Source of the DNA: an uncultured Coprobacillus sp.
GTDB lineage: Bacteria; Bacillota_I; Bacilli_A; ML615J-28; CAG-698
NCBI GenBank assembly: GCA_964389905.1
Contig: CAYMGD010000001.1
Coordinates: 47,334-111,333 of the forward strand
Direction: 5' to 3'
Length of the DNA: 64,000 nt
This document shows, piece by piece, positions 7,956 through 27,195 of the stretch. The stretch's first letter is position 1. Each line of letters starts with the position of its first letter. The notes beneath the pieces were generated by a model. It saw nothing but the letters and a program-made list of their open reading frames with translations, ran no database searches and was not told the origin of the DNA. A program made the translations under genes and the position numbers.

Positions 7956-8081
7956 AAGGAGCCTAATCATAAATTTAGGTAAAATACTAAAAAATGGAAT
8001 AAGATTAATTAGAAGAACATAAATCACAAAATTTTATTAAGTATTATAAAAAGAAAAAATTACATTAAGGAGTAATATTAT

Positions 8082-9287
8082 ATGAAAAATGCCTTTTTCT
8101 TTGGAGCAGGTGCGGAAGATATCTATGGTTTACCACTAGGTGGTGAATATGTGTTAGATACTATGATGACAAAAAAGCCAAAATTATATGATGAATTAGA
8201 AAAGTTTTACGAAGGTTCAAAAATAGAATATCAAAAGGAATTTCTATTTTCTTCAAATAGTAACACGTTTGCAAATATTTTATTGGATGCATATAAGACT
8301 TTTATAAATGAAAAAGATTATAAAAAAGATGAAAACTGTTTAATAGAAAAGATATTTAAAGATGTTGATTTTAAGTATGATGAATCTAAAAAAAAGGAAG
8401 ATATTCTAAAGAAAATAAAAGATAATTTAAGTCAAGAAAAAGATAAAGAACAATTGTTTGATATCATAATTAACAGAAAATATAATGATTCAGAATTGGA
8501 CAAGTTTTTTAAAAAATTAAAATATTATGGAACAATAGAAAAAGATTTTTCTTGCTTGCTTGATTATAATGCATATATAAAAAGAGCCTCAAGACTAATT
8601 AATTATTTTTGGAGCTGTTATTTTTCTATTTTTATACCATATCTAAAAGCATATTATGGAGAAGAAAAATTTTATAAAGAACTTTTTAATAAAGAAAATG
8701 GTAAATATAAATTTTTAAAAATTATAGAAGAATTAAAAAAAGCAAATATAAGTGATTTTAAAACAAAAAATAATGAAAAAAGTTATTACCAAGTCATAGC
8801 TGAAAAGTATACAGATAATACTTTTGCCATTACAACAAATTACACTTTCTTTGTTGAAAAAGCTTTTAAAAATAATATTTATTTAGCAGGCAAATTAGAC
8901 GAATTTGAGGAAATTGATACATTTATGGTTTCAAATGAATTGAGCAATAATTCTATTCCATTTTTATATACACAAGCTCCAATTAAACCAATTATTGCAT
9001 ATAAAACTATTGAAAAGTATTATAATGCGATGAATGAGATGAAAAATGCTAATAATATTTTTGTTATTGGGTATGGCTTTTGTAACGAGGATTCACACAT
9101 AAAAACGTTATTTTTAGAACTTAGACAACAAAATAAAAACTTAAACATAATTTATTGTGATTATGGAAGTAATGTGGAAAAAAATAGTAAATTTGAAGAG
9201 TATTTAAAAAAATTAAATGCCAAAATTGAATCATACAGTAATTGTGAAGAACTAATGAAAATAATTGATAAATATCAAATAAATTAA
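8082..9287 (+). CDS. SIR2-like (SIR2_2) domain protein B
   Basis: 401 aa. Motifs FFFGAGAEDIYGL, ITTNYTFF, VIGYGFCNEDSH. The HG position reads YLAGKL, so the conserved His appears to be replaced. Confidence 0.5.
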   Translation: MKNAFFFGAGAEDIYGLPLGGEYVLDTMMTKKPKLYDELEKFYEGSKIEYQKEFLFSSNSNTFANILLDAYKTFINEKDYKKDENCLIEKIFKDVDFKYDESKKKEDILKKIKDNLSQEKDKEQLFDIIINRKYNDSELDKFFKKLKYYGTIEKDFSCLLDYNAYIKRASRLINYFWSCYFSIFIPYLKAYYGEEKFYKELFNKENGKYKFLKIIEELKKANISDFKTKNNEKSYYQVIAEKYTDNTFAITTNYTFFVEKAFKNNIYLAGKLDEFEEIDTFMVSNELSNNSIPFLYTQAPIKPIIAYKTIEKYYNAMNEMKNANNIFVIGYGFCNEDSHIKTLFLELRQQNKNLNIIYCDYGSNVEKNSKFEEYLKKLNAKIESYSNCEELMKIIDKYQIN

Positions 9288-9318
9288 TATGAATTATAAG
9301 TAAATAACAGGAGGAAAA

Positions 9319-12300
9319 ATGAAAACAAGAAAACTATTGATATTTGTATTATTCATATTACTACTAGGAATAGGATGTAATAATACAAGAGAATGTGAGC
9401 ATACTATTGAAAATATTAAAGCACAAGAAGCAACTTGCATAAAGGAAGGTAATATTGAGTATTATTATTGTACTAAATGTAATAAGTATTACACTGATGA
9501 AAAATTAACTACTGAGGTAAAGCATGAAGACTTAGTGTTACAAAAAACAAGCCATACAGAATCAGATTGGATAATAGATACTGAAGCAACTTGTAGTAAT
9601 CAAGGGTTAAAACATAAAGAATGTACAGTATGTAAAGAAAAGTTACAAGAAGAAGTAATAGGAGAAACAGAACATAGTTACACTGAAACTATAATCAATC
9701 CAACATGTGAGAAAGAAGGTTATACTCTTCATAAATGTTTATGTGGCGATGAATATAAAGATACTTATGTTGAAGCCTTAGGACATACTGAAGAAATCAT
9801 TTCAGGAATTGATGCAACATGTACAGAAAGTGGCCTAACAGAAGGAAAGAAGTGTTCAGTTTGTGGAGAAATATTAGTAAAACAAGAAGTAATCAAAGCT
9901 AAAGGACATAATCATACAGAAACAGTTATAGCACCAACTTGTACAAAGCAAGGTTATACAATTCATACTTGCCACTGTGGAGATAGCTATAAAGATACTT
10001 ATGTAGATGCTTTAGGACATACTGAAGAAATCATTTCAGGATTAGATGCAACATGTACAGAAAGTGGGCTAACAGAAGGAAAGAAATGTTCAGTTTGTGG
10101 AGAAATATTAGTTAACCAAGAAGTAATAAAAGCAAAAGGTCATAATCATACAGAAACAGTTATAGCACCAACTTGTACAGAAGATGGCTATACAATTCAT
10201 AAATGCCACTGTGGAGATGAATATAAAGATACTTATGTAAATGCTTTAGGACATACAGAAGAAATCATTTCAGGATTAGAAGCAACATGTACAGAAAATG
10301 GTCTAACAGAAGGAAAGAAATGCTCAGCTTGTGGAGAAATATTAGTTAAACAAGAAGTAATAAAAATAAAAGAACATAACTATGGTGATTGGATAATAGT
10401 TAAGCCTGCAACTGAACAAGAAACAGGTTTAAAAACAAGAAAATGTCTTGACTGTGAGAAAGAAGAAACAGTAGAAATCCCAACGCTAGATCATATTCAT
10501 TCTTATGATGAAACAGTTATAGCACCAACATGTACAGAAGATGGCTATACAATTCATAAATGCCACTGTGGAGATGAGTATAAAGATACTTATGTAAATG
10601 CTTTAGGACATACAGAAGAAATTATTTCAGGATTAGAAGCAACATGTACAGAAAGTGGACTAACAGAAGGAAAGAAATGTTCAGTCTGTGGAGAAATACT
10701 AGTAAAACAAGAAGTAATCAAAGCTAAAGGACATAATCATAGTACAAGTAATATAGTGCTCTTAGATGAAGGCAATAAAGCAGTAACAAGATATTATTGC
10801 TCTAATTGTACTAGTTATAAAGATGAAATATATTCAGGATATTATTTACTAAATGATATTGCTTATGAATTTGATAATTCAGGTAATAGAATTAATTTAA
10901 ATGAATCATTTATAGAAGTAAATGGAAACACATATTATATAATTAATAATACTATTATAAAGAATTATTATATAATAGATGGAACAATCTATGACTTTGG
11001 TAGTGATGGAATAAAACAAGAAACTGTTCTAACAGATACAATTATTACATTTGAAGATAATTTATATTATGTTATTAATAACATAATCCAAAAAGAAGTA
11101 TTTATAGTTTATGAACAATGTATATATTTCTTTGATGAAACTGGTAAAGCATTAGTAAATACAACATATAATGGATATACATTTAATGCAAATGGATATT
11201 TAATAGGTAATGATATATTAATAGAAATTAACAAAGTATTATATTATGTTGTTAATAATATTGCATCAGTACATAATCATAGTTTAGAACACAAACTATA
11301 TAATCCTGCAACTTGTACAGCTGATGGTAATATAGAATATTTCTACTGCACAATATGTAATAGATTATATAAAGATAATGAATGTATTAATGAAATAACT
11401 AATGAAGATATTATTATAAAAGCATCACATAATATTACTAAATATGAAGGTAAAGAATCAACTTGTACTGAACAAGGATATAAAGCATATGAAAAATGTG
11501 CAAATTGTTCTTATACGACATTTACATATCTTCCATTAAAAGAACATACACTAACAGACTGGATAATAGATACTGAAGCAACATGTACACAAACAGGAAG
11601 TAAACATAAAGAATGTAGTGTTTGTGAGAATATTCTTGAAACAGAAACAATTGAAGTTTTTAATCATAACTATGAAAATGGAAAATGTACTATTTGTGGG
11701 AAAACACAAAACGCTTCTACAGAAAGTAAAATATGGCAAGATAATGGTTACGTTTATTTTGGAGAATATCCTCAAACACTAAAAGAAGAAAGTATAACAA
11801 TTGTTAGCGATACACCAAATAGTGATGGATATTATTTAGGTAGTGATGGTGAAAGATACGCAAAAGTTACTGCAAAACCATATAGTAGTTCATATTATTT
11901 TAATGGCAATGCATCAAAAATAGTAAAAGGAACAACATACTATTTCAAAGTAGAACCAATTAGATGGAAGATTGAAGAACAAAGTAATGACACATATAAA
12001 CTAATATGCGATTTAGTTATTGATTGTCAAATGTATTACTCATCTAAAAATGAAAGAACAATAGATGGACAAACAATATATGCTAATAATTATAAATATT
12101 CTGATATAAGAAGTTGGTTAAATAATGAATTCTTAAACAAAACATTTACTGAAGATCTTCAAGAATATATAAATGTAACAGAAGTTGATAATAGTGCTTT
12201 ATCAACTGGGTATTCAGAAAATGAATATGTTTGCGAAAACACAATGGATAAAATATATTTACCAAGTTACGAAGAAATGTGTAAATATGCATATGGTTAT

Positions 12301-13683
12301 AGTACTGATTCATTAGAAAAAGATTATGCAAGGCAAAAACAACTAACAGATTATGCCAAAGCAATGGGATGTAGTATGAATACAACTGATGACTATTACA
12401 ATAGTGGCAGCTATTGGCTTCGTTCATCAACAAACTATATAGGTACATATGTACGTGGAGTAAGCACAGATGGTTATGTATTTAATGATTATATTAATCA
12501 TAGTGGCGTTGGTGTTATTCCTTCAATGTCAATAACAAAAGATAATATTCCTTTTATGCATAATATAGTAAAGTGCGAAGGAAAAGAATCTACATGTACA
12601 GAATATGGATACGAACCATACGAAAAATGTATTGATTGTTCATATACAACATTTACATATCTTCCATTAAAAGAGCATACATTAACAGACTGGATAATCG
12701 ATTCACAAGCAACTTGTATGCAAACTGGAAGTAAACATAAAGAATGTACAGTATGTGAAAATGTTGTTGAGACGGAAACAATAGAAGCAATTGGTCATAA
12801 TTATATTAATAATATATGCACAAAATGCAATATTAAAAGGATTGAAGTTGGCGATAAAGAAATCTTAATAGGTACAGGTTATATCTATTTTGGCGAATAT
12901 CCTCAAACACTAAAAGAAGAAAGTGTAACAATTGTTAGTGATGCACCAGATAGTGATGGCTATTATCTAGGTAGTGATGGCGAAAGATATGCGAAAGTTA
13001 CTGCAAAACCATATCCTTATCCTTATAGTTCATATTACTTTAATGATAAAACAACAAAAATAGTAAAAGGAACAACATACTATTTCAAAGTTGAACCAAT
13101 TAGATGGAAAATTGAGGCACAAACCAATAGTACATATAAACTAATAAGTGATTTAATTATTGATTGTCAAAAATATCATTCATCAACATCAACAAGAACA
13201 ATAGATGGAAAAACAATATGTGCTAATAATTATGAATATTCTGATATAAGAAATTGGTTAAATAATGAATTCTTAAACAAAGCATTCCAAGAAGTTCTTC
13301 AAGAATATATAAATGTAACAGAAGTAGATAATAGTGCTTCATCAACTGAGTATTCAGAAAATAAATATGCTTGTGAAAATACAATGGATAAAATATATTT
13401 ACCAAGCCGTGCAGAAATGCTAAAAGCAGAATATGACTATAGAACAAGTTCTGGAGAAGATACAGCAAGACAAAAGCAACTAACAGATTATGCTAAAGCA
13501 ATGGGATGTTTTATGAATACAACTGATGATTACTACAATAACGGTTATTATTGGCTTCGCTCGCCTTTCAGCGACGACTCGGACGGCGCGTACTTCGTTC
13601 ACTACTATGGCAATGTGCGCAACTACTACGTCTACGACGTCAGCATTGGCGTCGCCCCCGCTTTAACAATCCAAATCGACTAA
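9319..13683 (+). CDS. DGR target protein. Cys-rich repeat surface lipoprotein B with two C-type-lectin-fold domains; the C-terminal one carries the variable repeat.
   Basis: 1454 aa. Lipoprotein signal LLLGIGCN. Internal 78-aa tandem repeats. Two copies of the YxYFGEYPQTLKE...YYWLRS module. The last 110 nt of the coding sequence match the TR apart from adenine positions. Confidence 0.8.
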   Translation: MKTRKLLIFVLFILLLGIGCNNTRECEHTIENIKAQEATCIKEGNIEYYYCTKCNKYYTDEKLTTEVKHEDLVLQKTSHTESDWIIDTEATCSNQGLKHKECTVCKEKLQEEVIGETEHSYTETIINPTCEKEGYTLHKCLCGDEYKDTYVEALGHTEEIISGIDATCTESGLTEGKKCSVCGEILVKQEVIKAKGHNHTETVIAPTCTKQGYTIHTCHCGDSYKDTYVDALGHTEEIISGLDATCTESGLTEGKKCSVCGEILVNQEVIKAKGHNHTETVIAPTCTEDGYTIHKCHCGDEYKDTYVNALGHTEEIISGLEATCTENGLTEGKKCSACGEILVKQEVIKIKEHNYGDWIIVKPATEQETGLKTRKCLDCEKEETVEIPTLDHIHSYDETVIAPTCTEDGYTIHKCHCGDEYKDTYVNALGHTEEIISGLEATCTESGLTEGKKCSVCGEILVKQEVIKAKGHNHSTSNIVLLDEGNKAVTRYYCSNCTSYKDEIYSGYYLLNDIAYEFDNSGNRINLNESFIEVNGNTYYIINNTIIKNYYIIDGTIYDFGSDGIKQETVLTDTIITFEDNLYYVINNIIQKEVFIVYEQCIYFFDETGKALVNTTYNGYTFNANGYLIGNDILIEINKVLYYVVNNIASVHNHSLEHKLYNPATCTADGNIEYFYCTICNRLYKDNECINEITNEDIIIKASHNITKYEGKESTCTEQGYKAYEKCANCSYTTFTYLPLKEHTLTDWIIDTEATCTQTGSKHKECSVCENILETETIEVFNHNYENGKCTICGKTQNASTESKIWQDNGYVYFGEYPQTLKEESITIVSDTPNSDGYYLGSDGERYAKVTAKPYSSSYYFNGNASKIVKGTTYYFKVEPIRWKIEEQSNDTYKLICDLVIDCQMYYSSKNERTIDGQTIYANNYKYSDIRSWLNNEFLNKTFTEDLQEYINVTEVDNSALSTGYSENEYVCENTMDKIYLPSYEEMCKYAYGYSTDSLEKDYARQKQLTDYAKAMGCSMNTTDDYYNSGSYWLRSSTNYIGTYVRGVSTDGYVFNDYINHSGVGVIPSMSITKDNIPFMHNIVKCEGKESTCTEYGYEPYEKCIDCSYTTFTYLPLKEHTLTDWIIDSQATCMQTGSKHKECTVCENVVETETIEAIGHNYINNICTKCNIKRIEVGDKEILIGTGYIYFGEYPQTLKEESVTIVSDAPDSDGYYLGSDGERYAKVTAKPYPYPYSSYYFNDKTTKIVKGTTYYFKVEPIRWKIEAQTNSTYKLISDLIIDCQKYHSSTSTRTIDGKTICANNYEYSDIRNWLNNEFLNKAFQEVLQEYINVTEVDNSASSTEYSENKYACENTMDKIYLPSRAEMLKAEYDYRTSSGEDTARQKQLTDYAKAMGCFMNTTDDYYNNGYYWLRSPFSDDSDGAYFVHYYGNVRNYYVYDVSIGVAPALTIQID
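9781..10740 (+). repeat. Near-identical 234-bp (78-aa) tandem coding repeats (3 contiguous units plus a 4th after a ~120-bp insert)
   Basis: Units begin GGACATAC(T/A)GAAGAAATCATTTCAGG at 9781, 10015, 10249 and 10605, about 90-95% identical at DNA level (GHTEEIISG-DATCTESGLTEGKKCSVCGEILVKQEVIKAKGHNHTETVIAPTCT-GYTIH-CHCGD-YKDTYV-ALG). Confidence 0.8.
13549..13660 (+). repeat. DGR variable repeat (VR), in frame at the 3' end of 9319..13683
   Basis: 112 nt align to the TR at 14201..14312. There are about 21 mismatches; all but one lie where the TR has A (TR AAC codons vs VR TTC/AGC/GAC/GGC/CAC/TAC/CGC). Confidence 0.85.
13641..13680 (+). promoter_or_regulatory. IMH-like element (GC-rich ATTGGCGTCGCCCCCG core plus VR-specific CTTTAACAATCCAAATC)
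   Basis: The 14-nt GC-rich core is shared with the TR 3' end. The flanking 3' sequence differs (TR: ATTTATCTTAC), as expected for IMH vs IMH*. Confidence 0.6.
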
Positions 13684-13701
13684 AAGGAGATAAATCAATG
13701 G

Positions 13702-13762: not shown

Positions 13763-14146
13763 ATGCCAAAAATAAGAAAAGAAACAGAATTAAGAGTTAT
13801 AACAAGTACTAAAAAATTAGTTGATTATGTATTAACAGTAACAGAAAAAAGTCCTAAAAAGTATAGATACACTTTTGTAGAGAGAATTCATACTATATTA
13901 TTTGATTTAGTTGAATGTCTTTATAGAGCTAATATTGAAAAATTAGGAAATCCTAAAAGACAAGAATATCAAAAAGATGCATTAGTATGCTTACAGTTAC
14001 TAGATTATTTTTGTGATATTGCAGTTGATGAGAAATGTTTAATATTTAGACAATATGAAAACATATCAGAAATGATTTGTACAACAACTAATTTATTAAA
14101 TAGTTGGATATTAAGTGATTTAAGAAGAATCAATGAAAAGAAATAA
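13763..14146 (+). CDS. avd: DGR accessory variability determinant (Avd-like four-helix-bundle protein)
   Basis: 127 aa, basic and predicted helical. Sits between the VR and TR as in canonical DGR cassettes. Confidence 0.65.
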   Translation: MPKIRKETELRVITSTKKLVDYVLTVTEKSPKKYRYTFVERIHTILFDLVECLYRANIEKLGNPKRQEYQKDALVCLQLLDYFCDIAVDEKCLIFRQYENISEMICTTTNLLNSWILSDLRRINEKK

Positions 14147-14200: not shown

Positions 14201-14312
14201 TATTGGCTTCGCTCGCCTAACAACAACAACTCGAACAACGCGTACAACGTGAACAACAATGGCAATGTGAACAACAACAACGTCAACAACGACAACATTG
14301 GCGTCGCCCCCG
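14201..14312 (+). repeat. DGR template repeat (TR), AAC-codon rich
   Basis: TATTGGCTTCGCTCGCCT then AAC AAC AAC AAC TCG AAC AAC GCG TAC AAC GTG AAC AAC AAT ... ATTGGCGTCGCCCCCG. Non-coding, between avd and the RT. Confidence 0.85.
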
Positions 14313-14513
14313 ATTTATCTTACTAGTAGATGAAATAATCTATGGATTTACAGAATAATATTTTAGGTAAAATATTACAGTTTTAAGATAAAGGAACTTT
14401 ATTCCCTGTTATTAAATAACTAAATATAACCACTTGTACTAGTGACTTCATTAATGAATTTACTAGTTGAGCATAATGAATGTCAAGTGGTTTTCTTTTT
14501 TAAAGGAAGACTT

Positions 14514-15521
14514 ATGAAAACATATGATGAAGTATTCACATTTAGAAATCTATACAAAGCTCATAAAAAGGCAAGACTTTCCAAAAGAAACAAAAAAGAA
14601 GTCATTGAATTTGAGTTAGATGTTGGTAATAATATTTGGAAGCTAAAAAAGGAACTTAATAATCGAACTTACAAAGTGAAAGATTATCATCACTTTATGA
14701 TATACGAACCAAAGAAACGAAAAATAGAAGCATTATCATATAGTGATAGAGTACTTCAACACTGTATTGTTGATGAGTATTTGATGGAAATATTAGAAAG
14801 ACATCTAATATATGATAATGGTGCTTGTAGGAAGGGAAAAGGAACAGATTTCTGCAGAAAAAGAGTTAAATCCTTTCTTACTTCCTTCTACAAACAACAT
14901 AACATAAATGGCTACGTTTTACAGTTTGATATTCATCATTACTTCGAATCAATTAAACATAATATCCTAAAAGAAAAGATTAAGAAAATTGTTAAAGAAA
15001 AAGAAATCTTAAGTTTATTGAATGCAATAATAGATTCATATTCAGATTATGAAAATTCTGGTTTACCAATAGGAAATCAAACAAGCCAATGTTTTGCATT
15101 ATATTATTTAGATGGAATAGATCGCCTCATCAAAGGAAAATATCAAATGAAGTATTATTCAAGATATATGGATGATGGCATTATCATATGTGAAAGTAAA
15201 GATAAAGTAAGAAGTTTATTAAATGATATTACTAAAGAATGTGAAATAATAGGACTAAAACTTAATGAAACTAAAACAAGAATATATAAGTTAAAAGAAG
15301 GATTTACGTATTTAGGTTTTAGATATATGATTTTATCTAATGGCAAAATACTAATGAAAATACCCAAAGCTAAAAAACAAAGAATAAAAAGATATTTAAA
15401 AACATTAGATGATACAAAAGATAGAATAGTTTTCTATAAAGATTATTTATTAAAAGGTAATAATTATATGTTTTATCAAACAATTAGAAATAATACAAAA
15501 AGGAAGAAATATGGAAACTAA
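14514..15521 (+). CDS. DGR reverse transcriptase
   Basis: RT motifs including YMDDGII (motif C) and the DGR-typical IGNQTSQ motif. RBS AAAGGAAG before the ATG at 14514; the six-frame ORF extends back to 14442. Confidence 0.8.
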   Translation: MKTYDEVFTFRNLYKAHKKARLSKRNKKEVIEFELDVGNNIWKLKKELNNRTYKVKDYHHFMIYEPKKRKIEALSYSDRVLQHCIVDEYLMEILERHLIYDNGACRKGKGTDFCRKRVKSFLTSFYKQHNINGYVLQFDIHHYFESIKHNILKEKIKKIVKEKEILSLLNAIIDSYSDYENSGLPIGNQTSQCFALYYLDGIDRLIKGKYQMKYYSRYMDDGIIICESKDKVRSLLNDITKECEIIGLKLNETKTRIYKLKEGFTYLGFRYMILSNGKILMKIPKAKKQRIKRYLKTLDDTKDRIVFYKDYLLKGNNYMFYQTIRNNTKRKKYGN

Positions 15522-16650
15522 TAAACTAAATAATTCATTATTTGATAGAATAAAAGAAGTTCTTGAAGATAGAAAAATAATTAATAATAACGATTATAAT
15601 AATGTTAAAGGATTTGTTAATAAAGAAGATAAAACTGCGGGTTATATTAAAGAATTATTTAAAAGTGTTGGGCTAGAAAGTAAAATCATTAGTAAAAATT
15701 ATATAAAAAATAGTTTATCTAATAAAATTACTCACACTTTATTCACGTTCTTTTTGGGACTATTAGTATGTAAATTCGATGATTTAGAAACTAAAATAGA
15801 AAAAGAATATGAAAAATATTTTAAGGAAAAAGACAATATATTTCTAAAAGTATGGACAATAACTTCCATCTTTCATGATTATGGATATGCATATATCACA
15901 AAAAATAAAGACAAATTGCAAGGAATAGAAGAATTGTCAAAAATAAAGGTTGATAATAATATATTTGAATATGAGTATGAAAATGAGGAAATACGTTATT
16001 CAAGAAACTTGTTAGAAGCATATTTTAGTGAATTTGCAAAGAAAAAGAAAAAAGCAACAGACGAAAAAGATAAAGAGGAGTATTTAGAACACGGAACTAT
16101 AGGTGGATATGTACTGTTTGATGAAATGATAAAGAATAAAATGAAGTTTAATGATGTTGATGATAATTATTTATATCAAAATATCTGTTATCGAATAATG
16201 GAACATAACATATGGAAAATAACAGATGATAATAAATTCTTTGATGAATTTGATAAAGAAAAAGTTCAAGAAGTTTATAAAAATAATTTTAAAATAATTT
16301 ATGATAATGAACCTTTATTATTTTTATTATCATTATGTGATACGATAGAACATGTAAAAAAACTACACACAAAAAATAAAAAAGGTAAAACCGCTAATAC
16401 ACGTGTAACAACTTTTGCAAAGAAAATAGGATTTGAAGTTACTAGTGATAGTATATCTATAAATTATATAGATGTGAAAAAGGAAGTAGAAACGGGAATA
16501 AAAAAAAGGAAAGCAGAACAAAAAGAAGATGATCCAGAACCGGAAAATGAATTCGAGAAATGGAAAAGTGGTATTATAGGATTAAATGGATGGGTTAACG
16601 TTGATATCGATGATAGTGATGAAAAATGGACAATATCGAAAAAATCATAA
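15511..16650 (+). CDS. HD-domain-like hypothetical protein, paralog B. Overlaps the RT stop by 11 nt.
   Basis: 379 aa, paralog of 2308..3408 with the same H/HD/H/H/D motif pattern. The ATGGAAACTAA start overlaps the RT TAA, which argues for translational coupling to the DGR RT. Confidence 0.45.
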   Translation: METNKLNNSLFDRIKEVLEDRKIINNNDYNNVKGFVNKEDKTAGYIKELFKSVGLESKIISKNYIKNSLSNKITHTLFTFFLGLLVCKFDDLETKIEKEYEKYFKEKDNIFLKVWTITSIFHDYGYAYITKNKDKLQGIEELSKIKVDNNIFEYEYENEEIRYSRNLLEAYFSEFAKKKKKATDEKDKEEYLEHGTIGGYVLFDEMIKNKMKFNDVDDNYLYQNICYRIMEHNIWKITDDNKFFDEFDKEKVQEVYKNNFKIIYDNEPLLFLLSLCDTIEHVKKLHTKNKKGKTANTRVTTFAKKIGFEVTSDSISINYIDVKKEVETGIKKRKAEQKEDDPEPENEFEKWKSGIIGLNGWVNVDIDDSDEKWTISKKS

Positions 16651-16735
16651 TCAGAATATCTATACTACAGTATTTATAACTAAAATATAAAATACAATAA
16701 ATAATTAATATGCAATGCATTATACGAGGAAAATT

Positions 16736-17809
16736 ATGAACACTAATGAAAATACTGAAAAAATAAAGTTTTTTAGAGGAGAGTCTAAAGAATATGAACA
16801 ACCGTGTACACCAACGCTTTTTAGATTCTTGAATGGATGTAATAATTTACTATTACTTGAGAAGGCTTATTATGAACTTTCTATGAATCATATAAATATG
16901 TTTAATTTTACATCAAAAAAAGATGAACTATTGAAGTATATATATAATGTATGCTTTATGCAACATTATGGCTTTGGTACTAGGCTACTTGATATCACTG
17001 AAACAAAAGATGTAGCATATTATTTCGCTAGTTGTTCAAATTTTGATCGAGATGGATATGTTTATTCATTTGAGGTAAGTGAGGATATGAAGTTTTTTAA
17101 GAGTGCTGAAGCAGAAACAGTAAGAAGAAAGTTCTTATGTATTAAAAATATAAGTACAGAAAATAAATGCATTATCAATCTCATTGAGAATGAGACAGAT
17201 AATGTCATTCGTTATAATACTATAACTAACAATGCAATATTAAAGTATGAAAGTTTATTTGATATTTTGCCAGAAAATATAAGATATCAAAGACAAAATG
17301 GAGCATTCATTGTCCCAGGCAACAGATTAGAAGGTGATAACATTAGTGATGAACATAATGTTATAATGGGGAAAAAAGAAAATCTAGTTAAAAGCATTGA
17401 TAAAATAGATGAGTTATATAAACTATGTTTCGAAAATGATAAACATATAAATCACGTATATTTATTTCCAGATGACGATAATAGTTTATACCTTTGTTCT
17501 AGATATAATCTATTTATAAATAGTTACTATAATCAAAAAAGTAATTTATTTAAAAATATTTACACTAAGTTTTACCTAGATAATGATGAAAGTAAATATC
17601 CTAAAGAGCATTTTGAAAACAATTCAGTTTTATTTGAAGAATTAACCAATGAATATGCATTTTATTTTTTCTTTATTGAAATGAAAGATTGTTTATTCTA
17701 TATATTAGAAGATGCAACTAAAATTAATAAGTTTTTCAAAGAAAATAAAGAAAAAACTATCAAAGAACTAATTGAACAAGCAAAAAAACTTATAAGAGGA
17801 AAATTATGA
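16736..17809 (+). CDS. FRG-domain protein
   Basis: N-terminal FFRGESKEYEQPCTPTLFR and QHYGFGTRLLDITETKDVAYYFA match the FRG-domain consensus (FRGq ... QHYGLPTRLLDWT ... AlyFA). RBS GAGGAAA before the ATG at 16736; an alternative ATG lies at 16715. Confidence 0.5.
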   Translation: MNTNENTEKIKFFRGESKEYEQPCTPTLFRFLNGCNNLLLLEKAYYELSMNHINMFNFTSKKDELLKYIYNVCFMQHYGFGTRLLDITETKDVAYYFASCSNFDRDGYVYSFEVSEDMKFFKSAEAETVRRKFLCIKNISTENKCIINLIENETDNVIRYNTITNNAILKYESLFDILPENIRYQRQNGAFIVPGNRLEGDNISDEHNVIMGKKENLVKSIDKIDELYKLCFENDKHINHVYLFPDDDNSLYLCSRYNLFINSYYNQKSNLFKNIYTKFYLDNDESKYPKEHFENNSVLFEELTNEYAFYFFFIEMKDCLFYILEDATKINKFFKENKEKTIKELIEQAKKLIRGKL

Positions 17810-18180
17810 ACTATAAAAAATTAATATTAATAAGTATTATTTGTATTATTACTAGGAATAGGTTGTAACAAAGATAATACATATAAACATGAAATTGAAT
17901 GCATTGCTAGCAAACAAGCAACTTGTACAAAAGAAGGTAACATTGAATATTTTCACTGTTTAAAGTGCGATAAATATTATAGTGATAAAGAATTTACTAA
18001 AGAAAAAAACTCTTAAAGAATTAGTTATTTAAAAGACAAATTATATTGAGTCTGATTGGATAATTGATAAAAACCCTTCATATTGAGACAAGGAAAGTAA
18101 ACATAAAGAATGCACTGAGTGTGGCATAGTAACTACAACAGAAATAATAGAAGCTAAAAATATTAAATATGCTTTTAAAG
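17810..18180 (+). pseudogene. Decayed third paralog of the Cys-rich lipoprotein family (frameshift in the signal peptide, premature stop, deletions)
   Basis: MNYKKLILISIICII then a frameshift. The +1 frame gives LLLGIGCNKDNTYKHEIECIASKQATCTKEGNIEYFHCLKCDKYYSDKEF then a stop. Further remnants SDWIIDKN...GSKHKECTECG lie downstream in other frames. Starts 1 nt after the FRG gene stop. Confidence 0.7.
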
Positions 18181-18486
18181 AAGCATCTATTCCTTCAAAA
18201 GGATTACTATTTTGATTTTCACCATAAACTTTATATAAAAACCTAATCTTAAAAGTTGCCTTATGTAAGGCATCTTTTACTTTGGAAAACAACTGTGAAA
18301 ACTTTTTAAAGGATTGTTTATGGACTAAAAAATATCATAATGACTTTTTACTTAATTTTGTTTAGGTGAATCCTTTTATACGTGTATAATTATTATACAA
18401 AATTTAGGTATAAAGATATATAAAAATTGTATATTAATATATATAAAATCGTCTTGATAATAGTAGGCATTTGTAGTATAATTTAT

Positions 18487-18512
18487 ATGTTGTATAATAC
18501 ATTATACAACAT
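18487..18512 (+). promoter_or_regulatory. Perfect 12-bp-arm palindrome containing TATAAT, in the promoter region of the large surface protein gene
   Basis: ATGTTGTATAAT-AC-ATTATACAACAT, 26 nt upstream of the RBS. Candidate operator overlapping the -10. Confidence 0.35.
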
Positions 18513-18537
18513 ATATAACATCATAAAAGGAGAAATT

Positions 18538-21500
18538 ATGAGAGAAAAAAACAAGCATACTTATTCCCATTTAATGGGAGTTATTTTTAAAAAGGTAATT
18601 TTGATTGCAATAGTGATTTTGCTATGTGGTGCAATCTTTATACCACTGGAAAGTAATAAATTAAATGCTAAGATTGTAATCGAAGAAGATGAAACTGCAA
18701 TACCAACAATTGATACTTCGACTATTATTCCTGGTTCAAAGCCAACAGGAACAACAACAGCAGCACAAGCAGCTGCAAATTATGTGACGAATTTGGCTGT
18801 TGATTTAACAATTCTTCCTGAAACAATAACACCTACAACTTCAACATTTTCGAATCTTTGTACAGGTGCTATTACATGGATTGCTAATAGAGCACTTAAA
18901 GAATTTACTTCTTATGTTATTTCAGAAGATATAGATGTATTGAGTGATTTTCTTATTGCTGTGCAAGATCCAGCAACAAGAGCAGAAATGCAACATAAAG
19001 CTCTAGTTAAAGAAATTGCTACGATTGTAAAAGATATACAAGTAAGTGTAAATAAAATATCAAGTCAACTTGATGAAGTAGCAGATGAACTTGGGAAATA
19101 CGAAACAGCTAATGCGTATGAACGTGCAACAATTAGTTTACGTGATAATTACACACAAAAGTATCAAGCTGCTTGGTCAAATTATCAAAAAGTTGTAGAG
19201 ATAGGATTAGAACTTGATAATCTTGAAAAAAAATATCCAGAAAGCAGTCGAACTGACTCTCAAACAGCTGAAATTGAGGCGTTAGAATATGCCCTTGAAG
19301 TTGCAACTGAAATGTATATTAGTACTGCGAAAAATTTGGATTTTCTTACTGATATCCAAACTATTTCAGGAACTTTTTGGGATCCTAACAATAAAACATC
19401 TTCTTATTTAGGAGCATACGAAGCATTCTTGCGAGAAAGATATACTTTTGAGCATCAAATAATTGACAATTTTGGAGTAGCTATTTCTTCTTGTGTCGAT
19501 TTGTATAATGAAATATTTGTTCTTTATACTGAATATTATACATATTTAAAAGAAAAAGCTGAAGAAAATGGTGATTTTGAAACATATAAACTTTATACTG
19601 AAAATTATTTCAATAATATAAAATATAGTATTACGCAAAATATAAATGCGATGGTTGAATCTATTGGTGTAAGTAGTTGGTTAGTTGAAGATAAACTTAC
19701 TCAAGATGAAATAGACCAAGCAATGGAAATTTATTCTGATTTTACAGAACCAGAAACTATCAATTATAAAGTTTCAATTAATGGTACAACTTATAACTCA
19801 TATCGAGTAAGAGCAAATAAAGATCTTCAATATTATATTATTCTAAAAAAATCTTTTACAGGACGTGATTTAGTTACAGGTTATTCGATAACTGAAAGAA
19901 CCAACGGAGCATCTAAATTTGTTCTTTATCGTCCAGAGTTTATGTTTAATGGACAATATACCGATGATGGTCAATTTAAGATGATATCATCACTTAAGGA
20001 ACTTTCATTTATTAGTAATAGTTGGACAAATCTTAGAGCATCACTTCGTGATGATTATGGTGGTAATTTATCAGGCTTATCAGCTGATATAAATAAAGTT
20101 CTTTTGTATAATTTTGAATGGACAGAATCACTAAATGCTGCTTCAACTTATGCAAGTTGGCCGATGAAATTTAGTAGTATTGATCTTAGTAATATTGATG
20201 TTGAAGTTGAAGATGTAAAAGCAAGAGCAGTTTACGAAGGCAACACTAGTTATCAAGCAATGGTAATTTATAAAGATATTGTAACTTCTATGAGTTATGA
20301 TAAGACTGGAACAAAAAAGATTAATGATGTGGATAATCTATCAAATAGAGTATTCCATGTATCTTATGGCCAAACATTTGATATATCTTCACTAACAAAA
20401 GATGCATCTAATGTTACTATTTATATAACAGGTTCAGCTACAATAAAATCTAATCCTAAAATTAAATTAAATAATTCGAATATTATTATTTGTAATACTG
20501 ATGAAAGTGATGTTGTTGAGTTAGAGAACGTTAATGTTGTCGCAACAAAACTTAGTGAAGCAGCTTTAAAAATTAAAACTGCATGTACTGTAAAAATGAC
20601 AGGTACTAACACATTTGTAGGAACAGCTAGTGTTAGTAGTACAACAAATCGTGATGAATTTTATATGAATTATACAAAAACGCGACCAATATTTGCTAGC
20701 CATGGAATCATGACTGATGGCAATGTTACGTTAACAGGTGGTGGAAAAGTTGTCGCAACAGGTAAAGATGGGGGAGCAGGTATTTGCTTTAATAGTGGAA
20801 ATCTTACAATTGATAATCTTACATTAGAAGCAACTGGTTCAAAACTTGTTAATGACGTAATTACAGTTGGTGCAGGTATTGGCTCTTGTGTTTCATTCTA
20901 TATTAAAACATATACTGATACAACGACATGGGTTGTATCAAAACAAAATACTTTCATTTCGAAAAATGGTTTAATTTATCGAGGTGACTCGGGAAAAACA
21001 GGAACTGGAGTACTTTCAATTGTTGATTCAACGGTTAGTGCTTATGGTAGTGATGTTTACCAAAATGCAAAAATCAGTAAACCAGTTACAGTTGAAGATA
21101 TCGGTGGAGTAGAATTAACTGTTGGTGTCGATCCTAAAGGAGAAAGCGAAGAATGGCATTACTACTGTATGAAGGGTGGAACAATCAGAAATAGCACGAT
21201 AACAACTAAAAGTGCATCTATAACTTCAAGAATTGATAAGAAAGATGTGGAAAATGTGTTTAATCCAGAAGAAATAAAGATATCAGCATTTACAAAAGGC
21301 TCTAACGGAGTTACAACTGATGGAATTTCTTTTAAACTTTACGGAACAAAAGGAGAAAGTGATTGGATTGAAGCAAGTGAGATTGGTAACGATAAAGGGG
21401 ATTCTTCACAAACTGTTTTAGGAAAAACTGTTGGTGAAATAACAAAAGTTGATTTTAAAACTAATGCAGATAATGCTTGGTGGGCTGGTAAAATTACAAT

Positions 21501-22962
21501 TGAATGCCTTTATAGTGAAAACAGTGTAACACTATACGGAGGAAGATGGATTGGCAAAGGTGGAAAAACACTTAAACCAACTGATAACGTGTATGCGGTA
21601 ACTGTTAATACTGGAACAGAAAATGGCGCGGGAACTGATGCAGATATAACTCTTTATTTGCAGGATAGCAATGGCGAAAAAACTGATGTTGTTGAACTGA
21701 ATGATATATCACAATTCTCTAATGCATTTGAGAATGGAGACTCAGAAACATTCTATATTTATGCTCCTGACAAATTCGCAGAATGCACTTATGCATATTT
21801 CTATTCAAATCATAAATGGGCAAAAGCCGATTGGTTATTACAAAGTTTTACAGTTGAAAAAGTTTTAGGAACAAGTGCCGATAACGGATTCACACACAAT
21901 TGTGCTCAATGGCTTACAGAAGACAAAACCGTATGTTTTGGTAAATATTCAGGATATACTGGTCAATTCTATCTTGAAGTAAAAACATCAGACAGAAGTG
22001 GCGCAGGAACTGATTCTGCTATATATCTTACTATATATGGTGACAAAGGAGATACTGGTGAAGTTAATATTGGAAAATATGCAGGTGACGGCAATAATTT
22101 TGAAAGAAACGATAAAGATTGCTTTAATGTTGTATATGACAAAGGAACAGTAGGTACAATTAACAAAATAGTCATCCGAAAAGATAATAGTGGCGTAGGC
22201 CCAGATTGGTATTGTGATTACATTATCATAACTGAAAAAGTTGCCGAAGGACAAAAAGGTCAATGTGTTAAATTTAATTTAAACAAAAAACAAATAAAAA
22301 ATAAAACATATACTTTCGATTCAAGCTATATATCATCAAGTACTCGTAAATCAGGCCAAACTGTAAATAGAGAAATTCTATCAAACCTTGAAAAGAACGA
22401 TGATGGATCTTTCTCACTTGATGTTGATAGAACAATTGTTTTGAGCGAAGAAGCATTCACACTAATTTCTGAAAGTAATGCTATATTTACACTTAATATG
22501 AAAGATAGCGATGACAAACTACTTTATAGTGTAACATTTGATGGAAGTAAATTTGATTCACATACAGCACTAGAATTTAAGAGTGGATATTCATCAAGTA
22601 ATGGGTATGCAATAATAGACTTCCTTGCAAACGCAAAACTTCCTGCTGGAACGACTTTAAAAGTCAATGCTGCACAACTAGGATTTTCTGATACTGATTC
22701 AATTTGTGTACTTGAAAAAGGAGAAAACGGTTGGAGTGATGAAGTAGAAGTCGAAAGCAAAGAAGGAATAGTAACTTTAAATCTTGAAGATGGTAAACAA
22801 TTGCTTTTGAAAGCACATAATGTTGATATTCCATCAACTACTGAAACTGAAAAAGAAGGAAGTTACACGTGGATTTGGATTATTGCGGCAATATTCTTTG
22901 TTGCAGTGGTAACAGTAGTTGTTATATTGAGAAACAAAAAACAAACAAGGAAATCCGCTTAA
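18538..22962 (+). CDS. Large membrane-anchored surface protein with PLAT/LH2-like repeats (N-terminal TM segment, C-terminal TM anchor)
   Basis: RBS AAAGGAGAAATT before the ATG at 18538. N-terminal hydrophobic segment. GAGTDADITLYLQDSNGEKTD and SGAGTDSAIYLTIYGDKGDTGEV are PLAT-like GTD motifs. C-terminus WIWIIAAIFFVAVVTVVVILRNKKQTRKSA. Confidence 0.45.
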   Translation: MREKNKHTYSHLMGVIFKKVILIAIVILLCGAIFIPLESNKLNAKIVIEEDETAIPTIDTSTIIPGSKPTGTTTAAQAAANYVTNLAVDLTILPETITPTTSTFSNLCTGAITWIANRALKEFTSYVISEDIDVLSDFLIAVQDPATRAEMQHKALVKEIATIVKDIQVSVNKISSQLDEVADELGKYETANAYERATISLRDNYTQKYQAAWSNYQKVVEIGLELDNLEKKYPESSRTDSQTAEIEALEYALEVATEMYISTAKNLDFLTDIQTISGTFWDPNNKTSSYLGAYEAFLRERYTFEHQIIDNFGVAISSCVDLYNEIFVLYTEYYTYLKEKAEENGDFETYKLYTENYFNNIKYSITQNINAMVESIGVSSWLVEDKLTQDEIDQAMEIYSDFTEPETINYKVSINGTTYNSYRVRANKDLQYYIILKKSFTGRDLVTGYSITERTNGASKFVLYRPEFMFNGQYTDDGQFKMISSLKELSFISNSWTNLRASLRDDYGGNLSGLSADINKVLLYNFEWTESLNAASTYASWPMKFSSIDLSNIDVEVEDVKARAVYEGNTSYQAMVIYKDIVTSMSYDKTGTKKINDVDNLSNRVFHVSYGQTFDISSLTKDASNVTIYITGSATIKSNPKIKLNNSNIIICNTDESDVVELENVNVVATKLSEAALKIKTACTVKMTGTNTFVGTASVSSTTNRDEFYMNYTKTRPIFASHGIMTDGNVTLTGGGKVVATGKDGGAGICFNSGNLTIDNLTLEATGSKLVNDVITVGAGIGSCVSFYIKTYTDTTTWVVSKQNTFISKNGLIYRGDSGKTGTGVLSIVDSTVSAYGSDVYQNAKISKPVTVEDIGGVELTVGVDPKGESEEWHYYCMKGGTIRNSTITTKSASITSRIDKKDVENVFNPEEIKISAFTKGSNGVTTDGISFKLYGTKGESDWIEASEIGNDKGDSSQTVLGKTVGEITKVDFKTNADNAWWAGKITIECLYSENSVTLYGGRWIGKGGKTLKPTDNVYAVTVNTGTENGAGTDADITLYLQDSNGEKTDVVELNDISQFSNAFENGDSETFYIYAPDKFAECTYAYFYSNHKWAKADWLLQSFTVEKVLGTSADNGFTHNCAQWLTEDKTVCFGKYSGYTGQFYLEVKTSDRSGAGTDSAIYLTIYGDKGDTGEVNIGKYAGDGNNFERNDKDCFNVVYDKGTVGTINKIVIRKDNSGVGPDWYCDYIIITEKVAEGQKGQCVKFNLNKKQIKNKTYTFDSSYISSSTRKSGQTVNREILSNLEKNDDGSFSLDVDRTIVLSEEAFTLISESNAIFTLNMKDSDDKLLYSVTFDGSKFDSHTALEFKSGYSSSNGYAIIDFLANAKLPAGTTLKVNAAQLGFSDTDSICVLEKGENGWSDEVEVESKEGIVTLNLEDGKQLLLKAHNVDIPSTTETEKEGSYTWIWIIAAIFFVAVVTVVVILRNKKQTRKSA

Positions 22963-23100: not shown

Positions 23101-23925
23101 CAAAGAACTTATCTCTATGTATTTTAGAATAGGGAAAATTATAGACGAAAATGCAGAATATGGCAACGGATTTATTAATGAATTATCGAAACATCTAAAA
23201 TTAGAATTTCCTAACGCCAACGGATATTCTCCGAGAAATTATGCAAGAATGCGCATAATTTTATATTGATTGAAAAAGTAAAAGATTTGGATATGCGCAT
23301 TTGGTATGCAGAGAAATGTATTGAAAACGGTTGGAGCAAGGTTGTTTTAGAACATCAAATTGATTTGCAATTATATGAAAGGCAAGCAGATTCATCTAAA
23401 AAATTGACGAATTACGAAAGTCGATTGCCTTCACCACAAAGCGAACTTTCTCGCGATATTATTAAAGATCCGTATATTTTCGAACTCGTGGGTTTAAAAG
23501 AAAAAATCGTAGAAAAAGATATAGAAAAGGCAATGCTTGAACAAATAAAAACGGTATTGCTCGAACTTGGCAAGGGATTTTCGTTTGTTGGAAATCAATA
23601 TATGATTTCAACACCGAATAATGATTACTTGATAGATTTATTGTTTTATCATTTGGAACTTCGTTGTTATGTCGTTGTGGAATTGAAAAATGCAGATTTT
23701 AAGCCAGATTTTGTTGGACAGTTGCAGTTCTATATTACGGCTGTGGATGAAACGTTAAAAAAAGAACAAGATAATTCAACAATAGGATTATTGCTTTGTA
23801 GAGGAAGAGATAGATATTCGGTGGAATGGTCGCTTAAATCGACAACTGCGCCGATTGGTGTCGCTTCTTATGAAATAAGAAATTATTTACCGACTGAAGA
23901 AGAGTTAAATAGATATTTAAAATAA
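23101..23925 (+). pseudogene. DUF1016 (YhcG-like PD-(D/E)xK nuclease) paralog, N-terminally disrupted
   Basis: 23266..23925 is collinear with residues ~120-333 of the intact copy 25640..26641 (WSKVVLEHQI..LYERQ.., LELGKGFSFVGNQY, LRCYVVVELK, IGLLLC). Nucleotides 23101-23265 encode the preceding segment (GYSPRNYARM) in another frame, with an internal deletion. Confidence 0.65.
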
Positions 23926-24030
23926 AATGGAGGCCTTGAGATAGAACATAAGTTTTTTATAACCATTCAAACAAAATGAAGATGTAAAAGCATAGTAAAA
24001 GTTATATTAAAATAATATTTATATGAATTG

Positions 24031-24059
24031 TTGACATATCCCATGAGATATGATAAAAT
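24031..24059 (+). promoter_or_regulatory. Sigma-70 promoter (TTGACA -17- TAAAAT)
   Basis: Canonical hexamers. Followed by the 5'UTR hairpin TTTCACC-aaatc-GGTGAAA, then RBS GGAGG. Confidence 0.5.
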
Positions 24060-24092
24060 TATTTCACCAAATCGGTGAAACGGAGGATTATA

Positions 24093-25160
24093 ATGAAACA
24101 AAATTATTGTGAAAACCAATATATACAATTAGCAAAACAATTGTTTTATGAAACTCTTAATAAAATACCTTATGTATCAAATGTTGAAATAAGAAATATA
24201 AATACAAAAGATGAATTTGGTAGTTTTTATGCTCTTGTTAAATACTCTGATACTGATGATTCACAAAAATTTTGCATTGAGGTTAAGTCTAATGGTGAAA
24301 GAAGATATGTTAATACATTTATGGAAGTGGCTTCAAAATTTGATGATGCCTGTTATGTCTTTATGGCTCCATATATATCTGAATCTTCAGCAGTTAGTTT
24401 GATTAATAATTGCAATAGTTTTATGGATTTGTCAGGCAACTGTTATATACTAACAAAACGAATAATTATGCATTATCAAGGCAAAGAAAACAAATATCTC
24501 TTAAAAAAAGAGAAAAAACAATATTTTTCAAAGTCTTCTTCAGTTGCATCACAGATTATGCGAACAATGTTAGATAAGCCATATGAACGATGGGGAGTTA
24601 AATCATTATCAGAAATGACTGGTAAGGCAATCGGAACTGTATCAAATGTAAAAAACTTCTTAAAAGAGCGTTTATGGATAGAAGAATATCAGAATGGTTT
24701 TGAACTAAAAAACATTAAAGAACTATTATGTGAATGGTCAAAAGATTATCATAAAAAAGATTCACTTATATATGAATATTATTCATTGGATTCTATACCT
24801 GAAATTGAAAAACATATATCCGAATGGAATATGATTAATAATAGTAAAGTATATTTAGGGTATTTCTCAGCAGCTGATAGATATGCACCAACTGTTCGAT
24901 ATCAAAGAATAAACTTATATGTTGATTTACAGCTTCTAACAAAATTTATAGAATATTTAGATCTAAAACCAGTTGAATTTGGAGGTAATGTTATTATTAC
25001 AATTCCTCACGATGAAACTGTAGAAATGTTTTCACGAAAAATAAAGGAAGACTATGTTACATCACCAGTTCAAACTGTAATTGATTTATTAGGAGATGCA
25101 GGCAGGGGAGAAGAGGCTGCAGAAACAATTATTTTGAAGGAATATGGTGAAAAAGTATGA
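24093..25160 (+). CDS. Hypothetical protein (possible N-terminal PD-(D/E)xK-like motif plus a wHTH-like middle region)
   Basis: RBS CGGAGG 6 nt before the ATG at 24093. YSDTDDSQKFCIEVKS resembles a D..E.K nuclease core. No family recognised with confidence. Confidence 0.3.
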   Translation: MKQNYCENQYIQLAKQLFYETLNKIPYVSNVEIRNINTKDEFGSFYALVKYSDTDDSQKFCIEVKSNGERRYVNTFMEVASKFDDACYVFMAPYISESSAVSLINNCNSFMDLSGNCYILTKRIIMHYQGKENKYLLKKEKKQYFSKSSSVASQIMRTMLDKPYERWGVKSLSEMTGKAIGTVSNVKNFLKERLWIEEYQNGFELKNIKELLCEWSKDYHKKDSLIYEYYSLDSIPEIEKHISEWNMINNSKVYLGYFSAADRYAPTVRYQRINLYVDLQLLTKFIEYLDLKPVEFGGNVIITIPHDETVEMFSRKIKEDYVTSPVQTVIDLLGDAGRGEEAAETIILKEYGEKV

Positions 25161-25639
25161 AATATTAAAAGGCTACTTTTGAGAAATGGTTATGAAAAAC
25201 ATCATCAAAAGTATTTTACGTTTGTAAAGACAATAGTAATTGATAGTGCTTCACAACTGGAGGCAATTTTGCTTTTGATTGTCTTTCATATAATGTTAAA
25301 ATTGAATATATTCGTCAGGATGGTATATTTGATTACGGACATATACGAGTTATTTCAATTGTACCATATATAATAATGAAAACTTTAACACTTGGCTGTG
25401 GTGAACCGAACTAGATCATTCTGGACCCATTGATAGAGTAAAATTTTTAGGCGCTACGGGGAGTGAAGCTTTAAGAATAAAACAAGATTCTTATCAAAAA
25501 GTTAAATATCTTGTGGAAAAGATAAAAAATTAATTGAAAAATTAAAAATAAAGTATTAACAAGCATAATAAAAGCTATTGATGAATTATGCTTTTTGTAT
25601 TATACTATAATTGTAATTTTGTAATAATGAGGTAATTCT

Positions 25640-26641: not shown

Positions 26642-26713
26642 ATTAGTCTTATAAAAAATGTGGTTTTACTATCTGTAAAGAACTCTTGTGATGATAACAA
26701 AAGTTCTTGACAG

Positions 26714-27193
26714 ATGTTTTTTTATTTTCACCGAAAAGGTACAAAAGACCTTTATATACGAATAAACATAAATAATCAAAAAACATCATACATTACTCTA
26801 AAGAAGAAAAACCTACTATTTTATTTGAAAAAAGAGTATTTAATCAAAATAAATAATATTGATCTTTTAAGAAACTATGAAAGTCGTCAAACCAGAAAAG
26901 TTTCTAAAGACTCAACAATTACATATTCTGGATGTAAATACTCAGTTCCAACTATTTACATTAATAAAATAGTTGAGATAGAATTTGATAGTAAAAAACT
27001 ATCAATATATTATAACAAAAAATTTATAACTTGTCATACAATTTCAAATAATATTTACAATTATCATAAAGAAGATTTAATAGATGTTATGAAAAGTGAT
27101 GTTTACAAAAATAAATCATATGAAGAGTTAGAAAAAATAGCTGATGCTCGTTTAGCTAGTTATGATAAATTAGGCAAGAAAGGTGGCAACTAA
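26714..27193 (+). pseudogene. istA: IS21 transposase IstA, C-terminal fragment only
   Basis: VSKDSTITYSGCKYSVPTIYINKIVEIEFDSKKLSIYYNKKFITCHTIS matches the IstA C-terminal region (..YSVP..). No upstream DDE domain. Confidence 0.5.
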
Positions 27194-27195
27194 AT

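Follow-up and report, generated by a model that had tools for sequence, protein, structure and literature searches.

The accessory proteins catalogued for diversity-generating retroelements (DGRs) are Avd, HRDC, MSL, and CH1, with no HD protein among them (Wu et al. 2018, PMC5758913). The same authors take conservation among related DGRs as the criterion for an accessory, and they regard genes common to only a few DGRs as weak evidence of DGR function. In this report, we examine the gene for a protein designated HD-like B, which begins inside the end of a DGR reverse transcriptase (RT) gene in DNA from an uncultured Coprobacillus species (GenBank assembly GCA_964389905.1, contig CAYMGD010000001.1, positions 47,334 to 111,333 of the forward strand). 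This whole stretch of 64,000 nucleotides, which has a GC content of 28%, is referred to as the window, and coordinates given without a locus name are positions within it. An earlier note on this DNA had proposed that HD-like B is an HD-type phosphohydrolase or nuclease that serves as a new kind of DGR accessory factor. Our findings do not support an accessory role. Apparently, HD-like B is an undescribed but ordinary HD-superfamily enzyme of conflict islands. Our preferred reading, to which we assign a probability of about 60%, is that it is an effector or partner enzyme of such islands that is packed together with the RT gene and is not a component of retrohoming.

HD-like B resembles the known accessories (PMC5758913) in that its gene is on the same strand as the RT gene and adjoins it, in at least two DGR cassettes. 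However, it is not homologous to any of them, and its 379 amino acids look like those of an enzyme, whereas the accessories are small nucleic-acid binders. Furthermore, HD-like genes are missing from the closest relatives of the RT, the family occurs overwhelmingly without an RT, and the locus already has an Avd gene.

A second group for comparison is the HD superfamily (PF01966 clan). RNase Y, PgpH, and HD-GYP proteins are two-metal HD phosphodiesterases with the residue series H..HD..H..H..D. HD-like B is like the superfamily in the order of its H, HD, H, H, and D residues, in the placement of these residues within or at the ends of helices in an all-alpha core, in the weak in-register Pfam HD matches of its relatives, and in the HD proteins that come first in fold searches. 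It is distinct in that the spacers between its motifs are longer (~47, 71, 38, and 45 residues), that its family adds invariant Y171 and G195 as well as the family-specific blocks HNIxK and DTIE, that it carries an additional N-terminal helical region and C-terminal alpha/beta domain, and that it attains no significant score by sequence or structure.

The third comparison set comprises effectors of defense and conflict islands, including nucleases and phosphohydrolases of the HD type, SIR2/TIR NADase pairs such as that of Thoeris, and AAA-plus-peptidase ternary systems (Kaur et al. 2020/2021; Dore et al. 2024). As with these effectors, the neighbors of HD-like genes include SIR2/AbiH-like, FRG (PDC-S15), TIR, HEPN, Schlafen, AAA-plus-trypsin, recombinase, and toxin–antitoxin genes, and the family is patchily distributed and rapidly diverging. 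Unlike them, HD-like proteins have no PADLOC model and no partner that is constant across contexts. The family also recurs beside large, variable proteins of the surface or sensor type, DGR targets among them. Its value lies in this link and in the lack of an existing model for it, not in DGR mechanism.

HD-like Genes Are Rarely Associated with DGR Reverse Transcriptases

The gene upstream of HD-like B is a genuine DGR RT (14514–15521, + strand), with an RVT_1 match of 3.9e-22 and the motifs IGNQTSQ and YMDD. Its start at ATG 14514 agrees with the database protein P0166, while the mechanical open reading frame (ORF) begins at GTG 14442. As the earlier note had observed, the ATG of HD-like B (15511) falls within the last RT codons. 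This is confirmed by the HD-like B ORF (15511–16650, + strand) and by the 11-nucleotide overlap ATGGAAACTAA (15511–15521, + strand), in which the TAA of the RT gene (15519–15521) is read in a different frame. A Shine–Dalgarno-like AGGAAG is located 7 nucleotides 5′ of the ATG. By itself, this arrangement is unremarkable because compact operons commonly have short overlaps of start and stop codons. Promoter and terminator scans were uninformative in this 25% GC DNA, and neither gene-wise GC content nor GC content at third codon positions gave a sign of foreign insertion.

Approximately 19 distinct genomic contexts seeded by HD-like genes were examined, and RTs were sought in them with a hidden Markov model (HMM) built from 114 DGR RTs. 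An RT lies beside the HD-like gene in two contexts, the window and a locus on an unrelated metagenome contig (L005); the RT HMM revealed none in the other 17. Locus L005 is an intact DGR with the gene order target, Avd, RT, HD-like, and all 17 of its mismatches between template repeat (TR) and variable repeat (VR) are at adenines. The 11-nucleotide RT/HD-like overlap is identical in L005 (ATGGAAGCTAA). The two RTs share 76% identity, compared to 36–42% for the two HD-like proteins. Moreover, neither RT-linked HD-like copy is the closest relative of the other; each is nearer to a copy that has no RT. Directly upstream of P0002, which is 65% identical to HD-like B, are 306 nucleotides of noncoding sequence, and upstream of P0005, which is 51% identical to the L005 copy, is a gene on the opposite strand.

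Examination from the RT side yields a similar picture. The nearest relatives of the window RT with available contexts (P0167, P0168, and P0171; 69–76% identical) belong to cassettes that end at the RT. The genes that follow are unrelated and encode an ABC transporter, a convergently oriented metallophosphatase, or RsgI together with a sigma factor, and the family HMM found an HD-like gene in none of these three loci. One of these three loci is L037. Its RT is 93.4% identical to the HD-linked RT of L005 and diverges from it only in the last ~12 codons. Because two RTs this similar differ in whether the gene is present, HD-like genes are gained or lost while the RT hardly changes.

Since it is missing from closely related DGRs, the HD-like gene lacks the conservation by which Wu et al. 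(PMC5758913) recognize accessories. Full-text literature searches found no paper on an HD-type DGR accessory, and among recognized accessory classes HD-like B gave no bAvd, HRDC, or other Pfam match, with MSL and CH1 not compared directly. In the survey of RT neighborhoods suggested in the earlier note, an RT-linked homolog does exist in L005, but the three nearest RT relatives are devoid of the gene. A true enzymatic accessory, if one existed, would open a new step in mutagenic retrohoming; the evidence presented here argues against this. For annotation, the lesson is that a start/stop overlap alone does not assign a gene to the adjoining system.

A Large Protein Family with an HD-type Signature

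HD-like B is described here from its ORF and translation, its conserved residues, and an AlphaFold2 (AF2) model. It is a cytoplasmic protein in which no hydrophobic segment is present. It consists of an N-terminal helical region, an all-alpha core (approximately amino acids 61–285), and a small C-terminal alpha/beta domain (amino acids 286–379). A word-index search yielded 17 relatives, and its repetition with a large alignment added few. An exhaustive profile search revealed at least 1,314 cluster representatives (50% identity) at E ≤ 1e-3, with 944 at E ≤ 1e-10.

An alignment of 139 diverse full-length relatives (A3), mostly 20–30% identical to HD-like B, has only eight invariant columns, which correspond to H75, H122, D123, Y171, H194, G195, H232, and D277. 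A second alignment, of 119 members (A4), has these eight columns invariant as well. Six of the eight are the six HD ligand positions, in the order H..HD..H..H..D. The motif blocks of the family are RxxH, W..LYHDxGY, DHGIxGG, HNIxK, and LLSLVDTIE. The complete set of H..HD..H..H..D residues suggests that HD-like B is a two-metal phosphodiesterase or nuclease.

The protein has no Pfam match at E ≤ 0.1, no NCBIfam match, and no family among the PHROGs, and the paralog HD-like A described below is likewise without a Pfam or NCBIfam family. In PADLOC-DB v2, the only match of HD-like B is to CARF3 (E 0.004), which is not meaningful, and four relatives had no match. No family member was found by tblastn against phage and plasmid collections or by a scan of viral contigs. 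Large as it is, the family has no Pfam, NCBIfam, PADLOC, or PHROG model. It has a strictly conserved HD-type signature and is a candidate for a new effector family of conflict islands.

The second copy that the earlier note placed at the other end of the locus, without an RT, is indeed present. HD-like A (2308–3408, + strand; 366 amino acids) is the first gene at the left edge of the island, has no RT alongside, and is 47% identical to HD-like B (E 1e-88; family HMM 3.9e-86). The gene at 8082–9287 was also considered as a second copy and was rejected; its product is unrelated to HD-like B and is an AbiH-like paralog.

Evidence Bearing on the HD Fold

The AF2 model of HD-like B has a predicted local distance difference test (pLDDT) score of 85.7 and a predicted template modeling score (pTM) of 0.90. 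Its core is all-alpha, and the conserved His and Asp residues reside at helix ends or inside helices. Matches to Pfam HD that lie in the homologous region and keep the first His and the HD doublet in register were obtained for three relatives (P0095, E 0.027; P0112, E 0.045; P0087, E 0.058), at scores of 14–15 bits that are below the 22-bit cutoff. In total, 7 of 119 members match Pfam HD, the best being P0159 at 8e-12. We rejected this last match as proof of the family fold because it maps to an extra N-terminal domain. A canonical HD domain located outside the family region is uninformative about the family domain itself. As an observation in its own right, P0159 (519 amino acids) is a fusion in which a canonical Pfam HD domain (amino acids 15–110) precedes the family domain (amino acids 191–514), such that the protein carries two HD-type signatures.

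PDB sequence searches with profiles of 17 and 139 sequences returned spurious matches only. When the full model was compared to the PDB with Foldseek, the best match was SAMHD1 (E 0.25, not significant), with PgpH-HD and dGTPase structures further down. Against BFVD, the best match was an HD-domain protein of an entomopoxvirus (E 0.5, probability 0.57, not significant). In the comparisons to the PDB, with the full model and with a core-only model, the TM-scores were ~0.2.

In our view, HD-like B is probably a highly divergent HD-superfamily enzyme. The HD assignment in the earlier note holds for the residues it named, which are invariant in 139 relatives, but the fold is weakly supported and no model or structure is matched significantly. 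HMM comparison and structure prediction, as proposed there, yielded subthreshold HD matches and nonsignificant Foldseek results.

A Probable Role in Conflict Islands

Immediately 3′ of HD-like B is the gene for an FRG-domain protein (16715–17809, + strand; Pfam FRG 8.1e-12), which also matches PADLOC PDC-S15 (1.3e-19), a candidate defense family, and phrog_4962. HD-like A is followed by the gene for an AbiH/SIR2-like protein of 440 amino acids (3881–5203, + strand), whose Pfam AbiH match (4.8e-5) is under the curated cutoff and which lies directly before a large lipoprotein gene (T1, below). A paralog of 401 amino acids (8082–9287, + strand), which is 26% identical to it (E 2e-14) and has weak PADLOC SIR2 matches, directly precedes a second such gene (T2). 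The HD-like gene of L005 is also followed by an AbiH-like gene, whose product is 41.5% identical to that of 3881–5203.

Comparable arrangements occur without an RT. Locus L040, which carries the closest homolog of HD-like B, has an HD-like gene, an FRG remnant, and a gene for a lipoprotein similar to T1 and T2 in the same order as the window, and no RT. In L042, the HD-like gene overlaps the start of a gene for such a lipoprotein. In this close clade, the conserved neighbors are those downstream of the HD-like gene.

More distant contexts vary widely. Neighboring genes encode HEPN_Toprim_N and HTH proteins (L001–L004); a TIR protein, followed by an AAA ATPase, a UvrD-like helicase, and a trypsin-like peptidase (L006–L008); a 2,698-amino-acid TIR/LRR/Flg_new protein, followed by AAA and trypsin proteins (L009 and L010); metallo-β-lactamase-fold proteins (L011 and L018); RNase III-like and LRR-methylase proteins (L017); SLH proteins (L019 and L022); a recombinase and a Schlafen protein (L020); integrases, Rep, and FtsK (L021 and L027); ParE and an FGE-sulfatase protein (L023); and ORF6N and TPR proteins (L024 and L025). 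These genes are the vocabulary of mobile and defense islands.

For HD-like B, we infer catalytic activity, substrate, coexpression, and a role in defense as follows. The protein is predicted to be a cytoplasmic two-metal HD-type phosphodiesterase or nuclease, which would serve its downstream neighbors, either SIR2/AbiH-like or FRG proteins, as an effector or partner enzyme. The island is best read as a series of tandem modules, each with an HD-like gene, an AbiH/SIR2-like or FRG gene, and a gene for a large Cys-rich lipoprotein. In this reading, the DGR cassette (target, Avd, TR, and RT) closes module 2 and HD-like B begins module 3, and HD-like B would be dispensable for mutagenic retrohoming. 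The RT-to-HD junction would then be explained without a functional link, because the tail of one module abuts the head of the next. Given that the modules are tightly packed, HD-like B is probably cotranscribed and possibly translationally coupled with the RT.

Several points weigh against this interpretation. Membership in the HD superfamily is not backed by a significant sequence or structure score. A Foldseek search of the PDB with a core-only model gave no HD match of note, and when the family profile was compared by hhalign to one canonical HD domain, that of P0159, the probability was 2% and only the HN motif aligned. In addition, ~40 nucleotides upstream of the overlap are also similar between the window and L005, even though the HD-like proteins are only ~36–42% identical, and the recurrent overlap could mean that RT-coupled expression is under selection. 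The ~19 contexts are a small sample of a family with >1,300 clusters. Finally, the defense role would be assigned purely through guilt by association, as the family has no PADLOC, PHROG, Pfam, or NCBIfam model.

Alternative Explanations

Among the alternatives, the one that survives best, albeit as an unlikely one, is that the HD-like protein and its SIR2/AbiH-like or FRG neighbor provide the output of a system in which the large repeat protein, diversified by a DGR in some loci, is the input. In at least 10 of the ~19 contexts, a T1/T2-like, DUF6273, FGE-sulfatase, TIR/LRR/Flg_new, SLH, or LRR_5 protein is encoded within a few genes. The L005 target, which combines a cytoplasmic TIR domain, one transmembrane helix, and external Flg_new and DUF6273 regions, makes this alternative attractive, and its TIR domain is shared with the protein encoded near P0013 (32% identity). 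The AAA-plus-trypsin neighbors resemble published ternary conflict systems, and other phyla have been proposed to contain DGR-diversified C-type-lectin sensors together with TIR or peptidase effectors (PMC10907252, PMC8195603). However, the targets in the window are plain lipoproteins without a cytoplasmic domain, so that no signal route to a cytoplasmic enzyme is evident. Many contexts also have no such large protein (L001, L013, L020, and L027), and the genes could be adjacent simply because both reside in hypervariable islands.

A broader proposal is that, in this Firmicute DGR lineage, the HD-like and SIR2/AbiH-like or FRG proteins are functionally wired to the retroelement. The HD-like protein would be either a translationally coupled nuclease or phosphohydrolase that aids the synthesis or integration of complementary DNA (cDNA), or the cytoplasmic effector arm of DGR-diversified receptors. 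The second version fits because the L005 target, with its TIR domain, single transmembrane helix, and external hypervariable lectin-like domain, is similar to a Toll-like receptor. Taken as a whole, we judge this proposal to be improbable.

Also improbable is a lineage-specific accessory, in which the RT-coupled HD-like protein would help retrohoming in this DGR clade. Such a protein might degrade the TR-RNA template, process cDNA ends, or shift the local pool of deoxynucleoside triphosphates in favor of misincorporation at adenines. DGR RTs are not known to have an RNase H domain, which counts in favor of this possibility. The absence of an HD protein from the listed accessories Avd, HRDC, MSL, and CH1 (PMC5758913) is noted alongside. 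The possibility is kept alive by the 11-nucleotide same-strand overlap with the RT stop, preceded by AGGAAG, because it recurs, and the arrangement is identical in the intact DGR of L005. Set against these points are the RT of L037 (93% identical) and two other close RTs, none of which has an HD-like gene, the RT-less nearest relatives of both RT-linked copies, the presence of HD-like A without an RT in the same island, the lack of an RT in 17 of the ~19 contexts, and the caution of Wu et al. about genes found in few DGRs (PMC5758913).

It is very unlikely that the protein has instead a novel all-alpha fold whose His and Asp residues bind a metal or ligand in a nonhydrolytic role, such as that of a sensor or regulator: the failure to match any HD model or structure significantly and the Foldseek TM-scores of ~0.2 would fit such a fold, but the invariant residues reproduce the HD signature exactly in both identity and order, three members have in-register subthreshold HD matches, and an HD protein ranks first in two independent structure libraries.

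The DGR Cassette, Its Targets, and Other Observations

The region from 13.5 to 15.5 kb of the window is a textbook DGR. The TR (14201–14317, + strand) and the VR (13549–13665) are 80% identical, and 22 of their 23 mismatches are at TR adenines. The sole mismatch at another nucleotide is a G at TR position 14251 that corresponds to a T at VR position 13599. The accessory protein Avd is encoded between VR and TR (13763–14146, + strand; PF22296 bAvd, 2.2e-11). The VR belongs to the gene for target 2 (T2; 9319–13683, + strand), a lipoprotein of 1,454 amino acids with Cys-rich repeats and a C-terminal DUF6273 domain.

A paralog of this target family (T1; 5220–7955, + strand) is also a lipoprotein with DUF6273, and, like T2, it has no cytoplasmic domain. 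Because its remaining VR equivalent is far diverged from the TR, T1 is probably no longer diversified by TR 14201–14317. It nonetheless retains a GC-rich end, GGTGTTGCCCCCGCTTTAACAATCC, that resembles an initiation of mutagenic homing (IMH) element and is 88% identical to the corresponding region of T2 (7800–7969 compared to 13528–13697). An AbiH/SIR2-like gene whose product has an N-terminal GAGAE motif lies 17–33 nucleotides 5′ of every target-family gene in the window and in L005. The AbiH/SIR2-like genes of L005 are located at 1772–2512, before the target, and at 9212–10513.

The target of L005 (L005:2545–6180) is a single-pass protein. Its cytoplasmic part contains an N-terminal, zinc-ribbon-like CxxC pair, a TIR_2 domain, and TPR-like repeats. 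One transmembrane helix (approximately amino acids 651–680) separates this part from external Flg_new repeats and a DGR-diversified DUF6273 domain. The TIR region is 32% identical to that of the TIR protein encoded near the HD-like gene for P0013 in L006. In its layout, the L005 target resembles a receptor of the Toll-like type.

Proteins with folds of the DGR-target type are also encoded at two other HD-like loci, namely a DUF6273 protein whose gene adjoins the HD-like gene (L021:2190–3614) and an FGE-sulfatase protein encoded nearby (L023:10314–13178). No RT was found in the fetched flanks of either locus, and these proteins may be trans-targets of a distant DGR.

A trio of genes recurs in three loci (L006:5555–11252, L009:8001–11073, and L015:600–2734). 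It consists of an HD-like gene, a gene for an AAA ATPase of ~375 amino acids that is 75–94% identical between loci, and a gene for a trypsin-like peptidase, to which L006 adds a UvrD-like helicase. In two of the loci, the trio lies 3′ of a gene for a TIR-containing protein. This looks like an undescribed multigene conflict system.

A third large repeat protein with PLAT domains is encoded downstream of the FRG gene (17806–22962, + strand). The intact part of this gene (18427–22962) encodes PLAT domains and no DUF6273. Its 5′ part (17806–18426) has homology to the N-termini of T1 and T2, including the lipoprotein signal sequence, and is disrupted by one frameshift and by in-frame TAA and TGA stops, with the frames judged by eye from the repeats. 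It is likely the pseudogenized or phase-variable 5′ end of the third repeat-protein gene. Further downstream (23266–28176) are truncated and full-length genes for a YhcG/DUF1016 PDDEXK nuclease, an AbiEi-like gene, a fragment encoding the C terminus of a Mu transposase, and an IS21 IstB gene. The presence of these YhcG, AbiEi-like, Mu, and IS21 genes is consistent with an island of the mobile and defense type.

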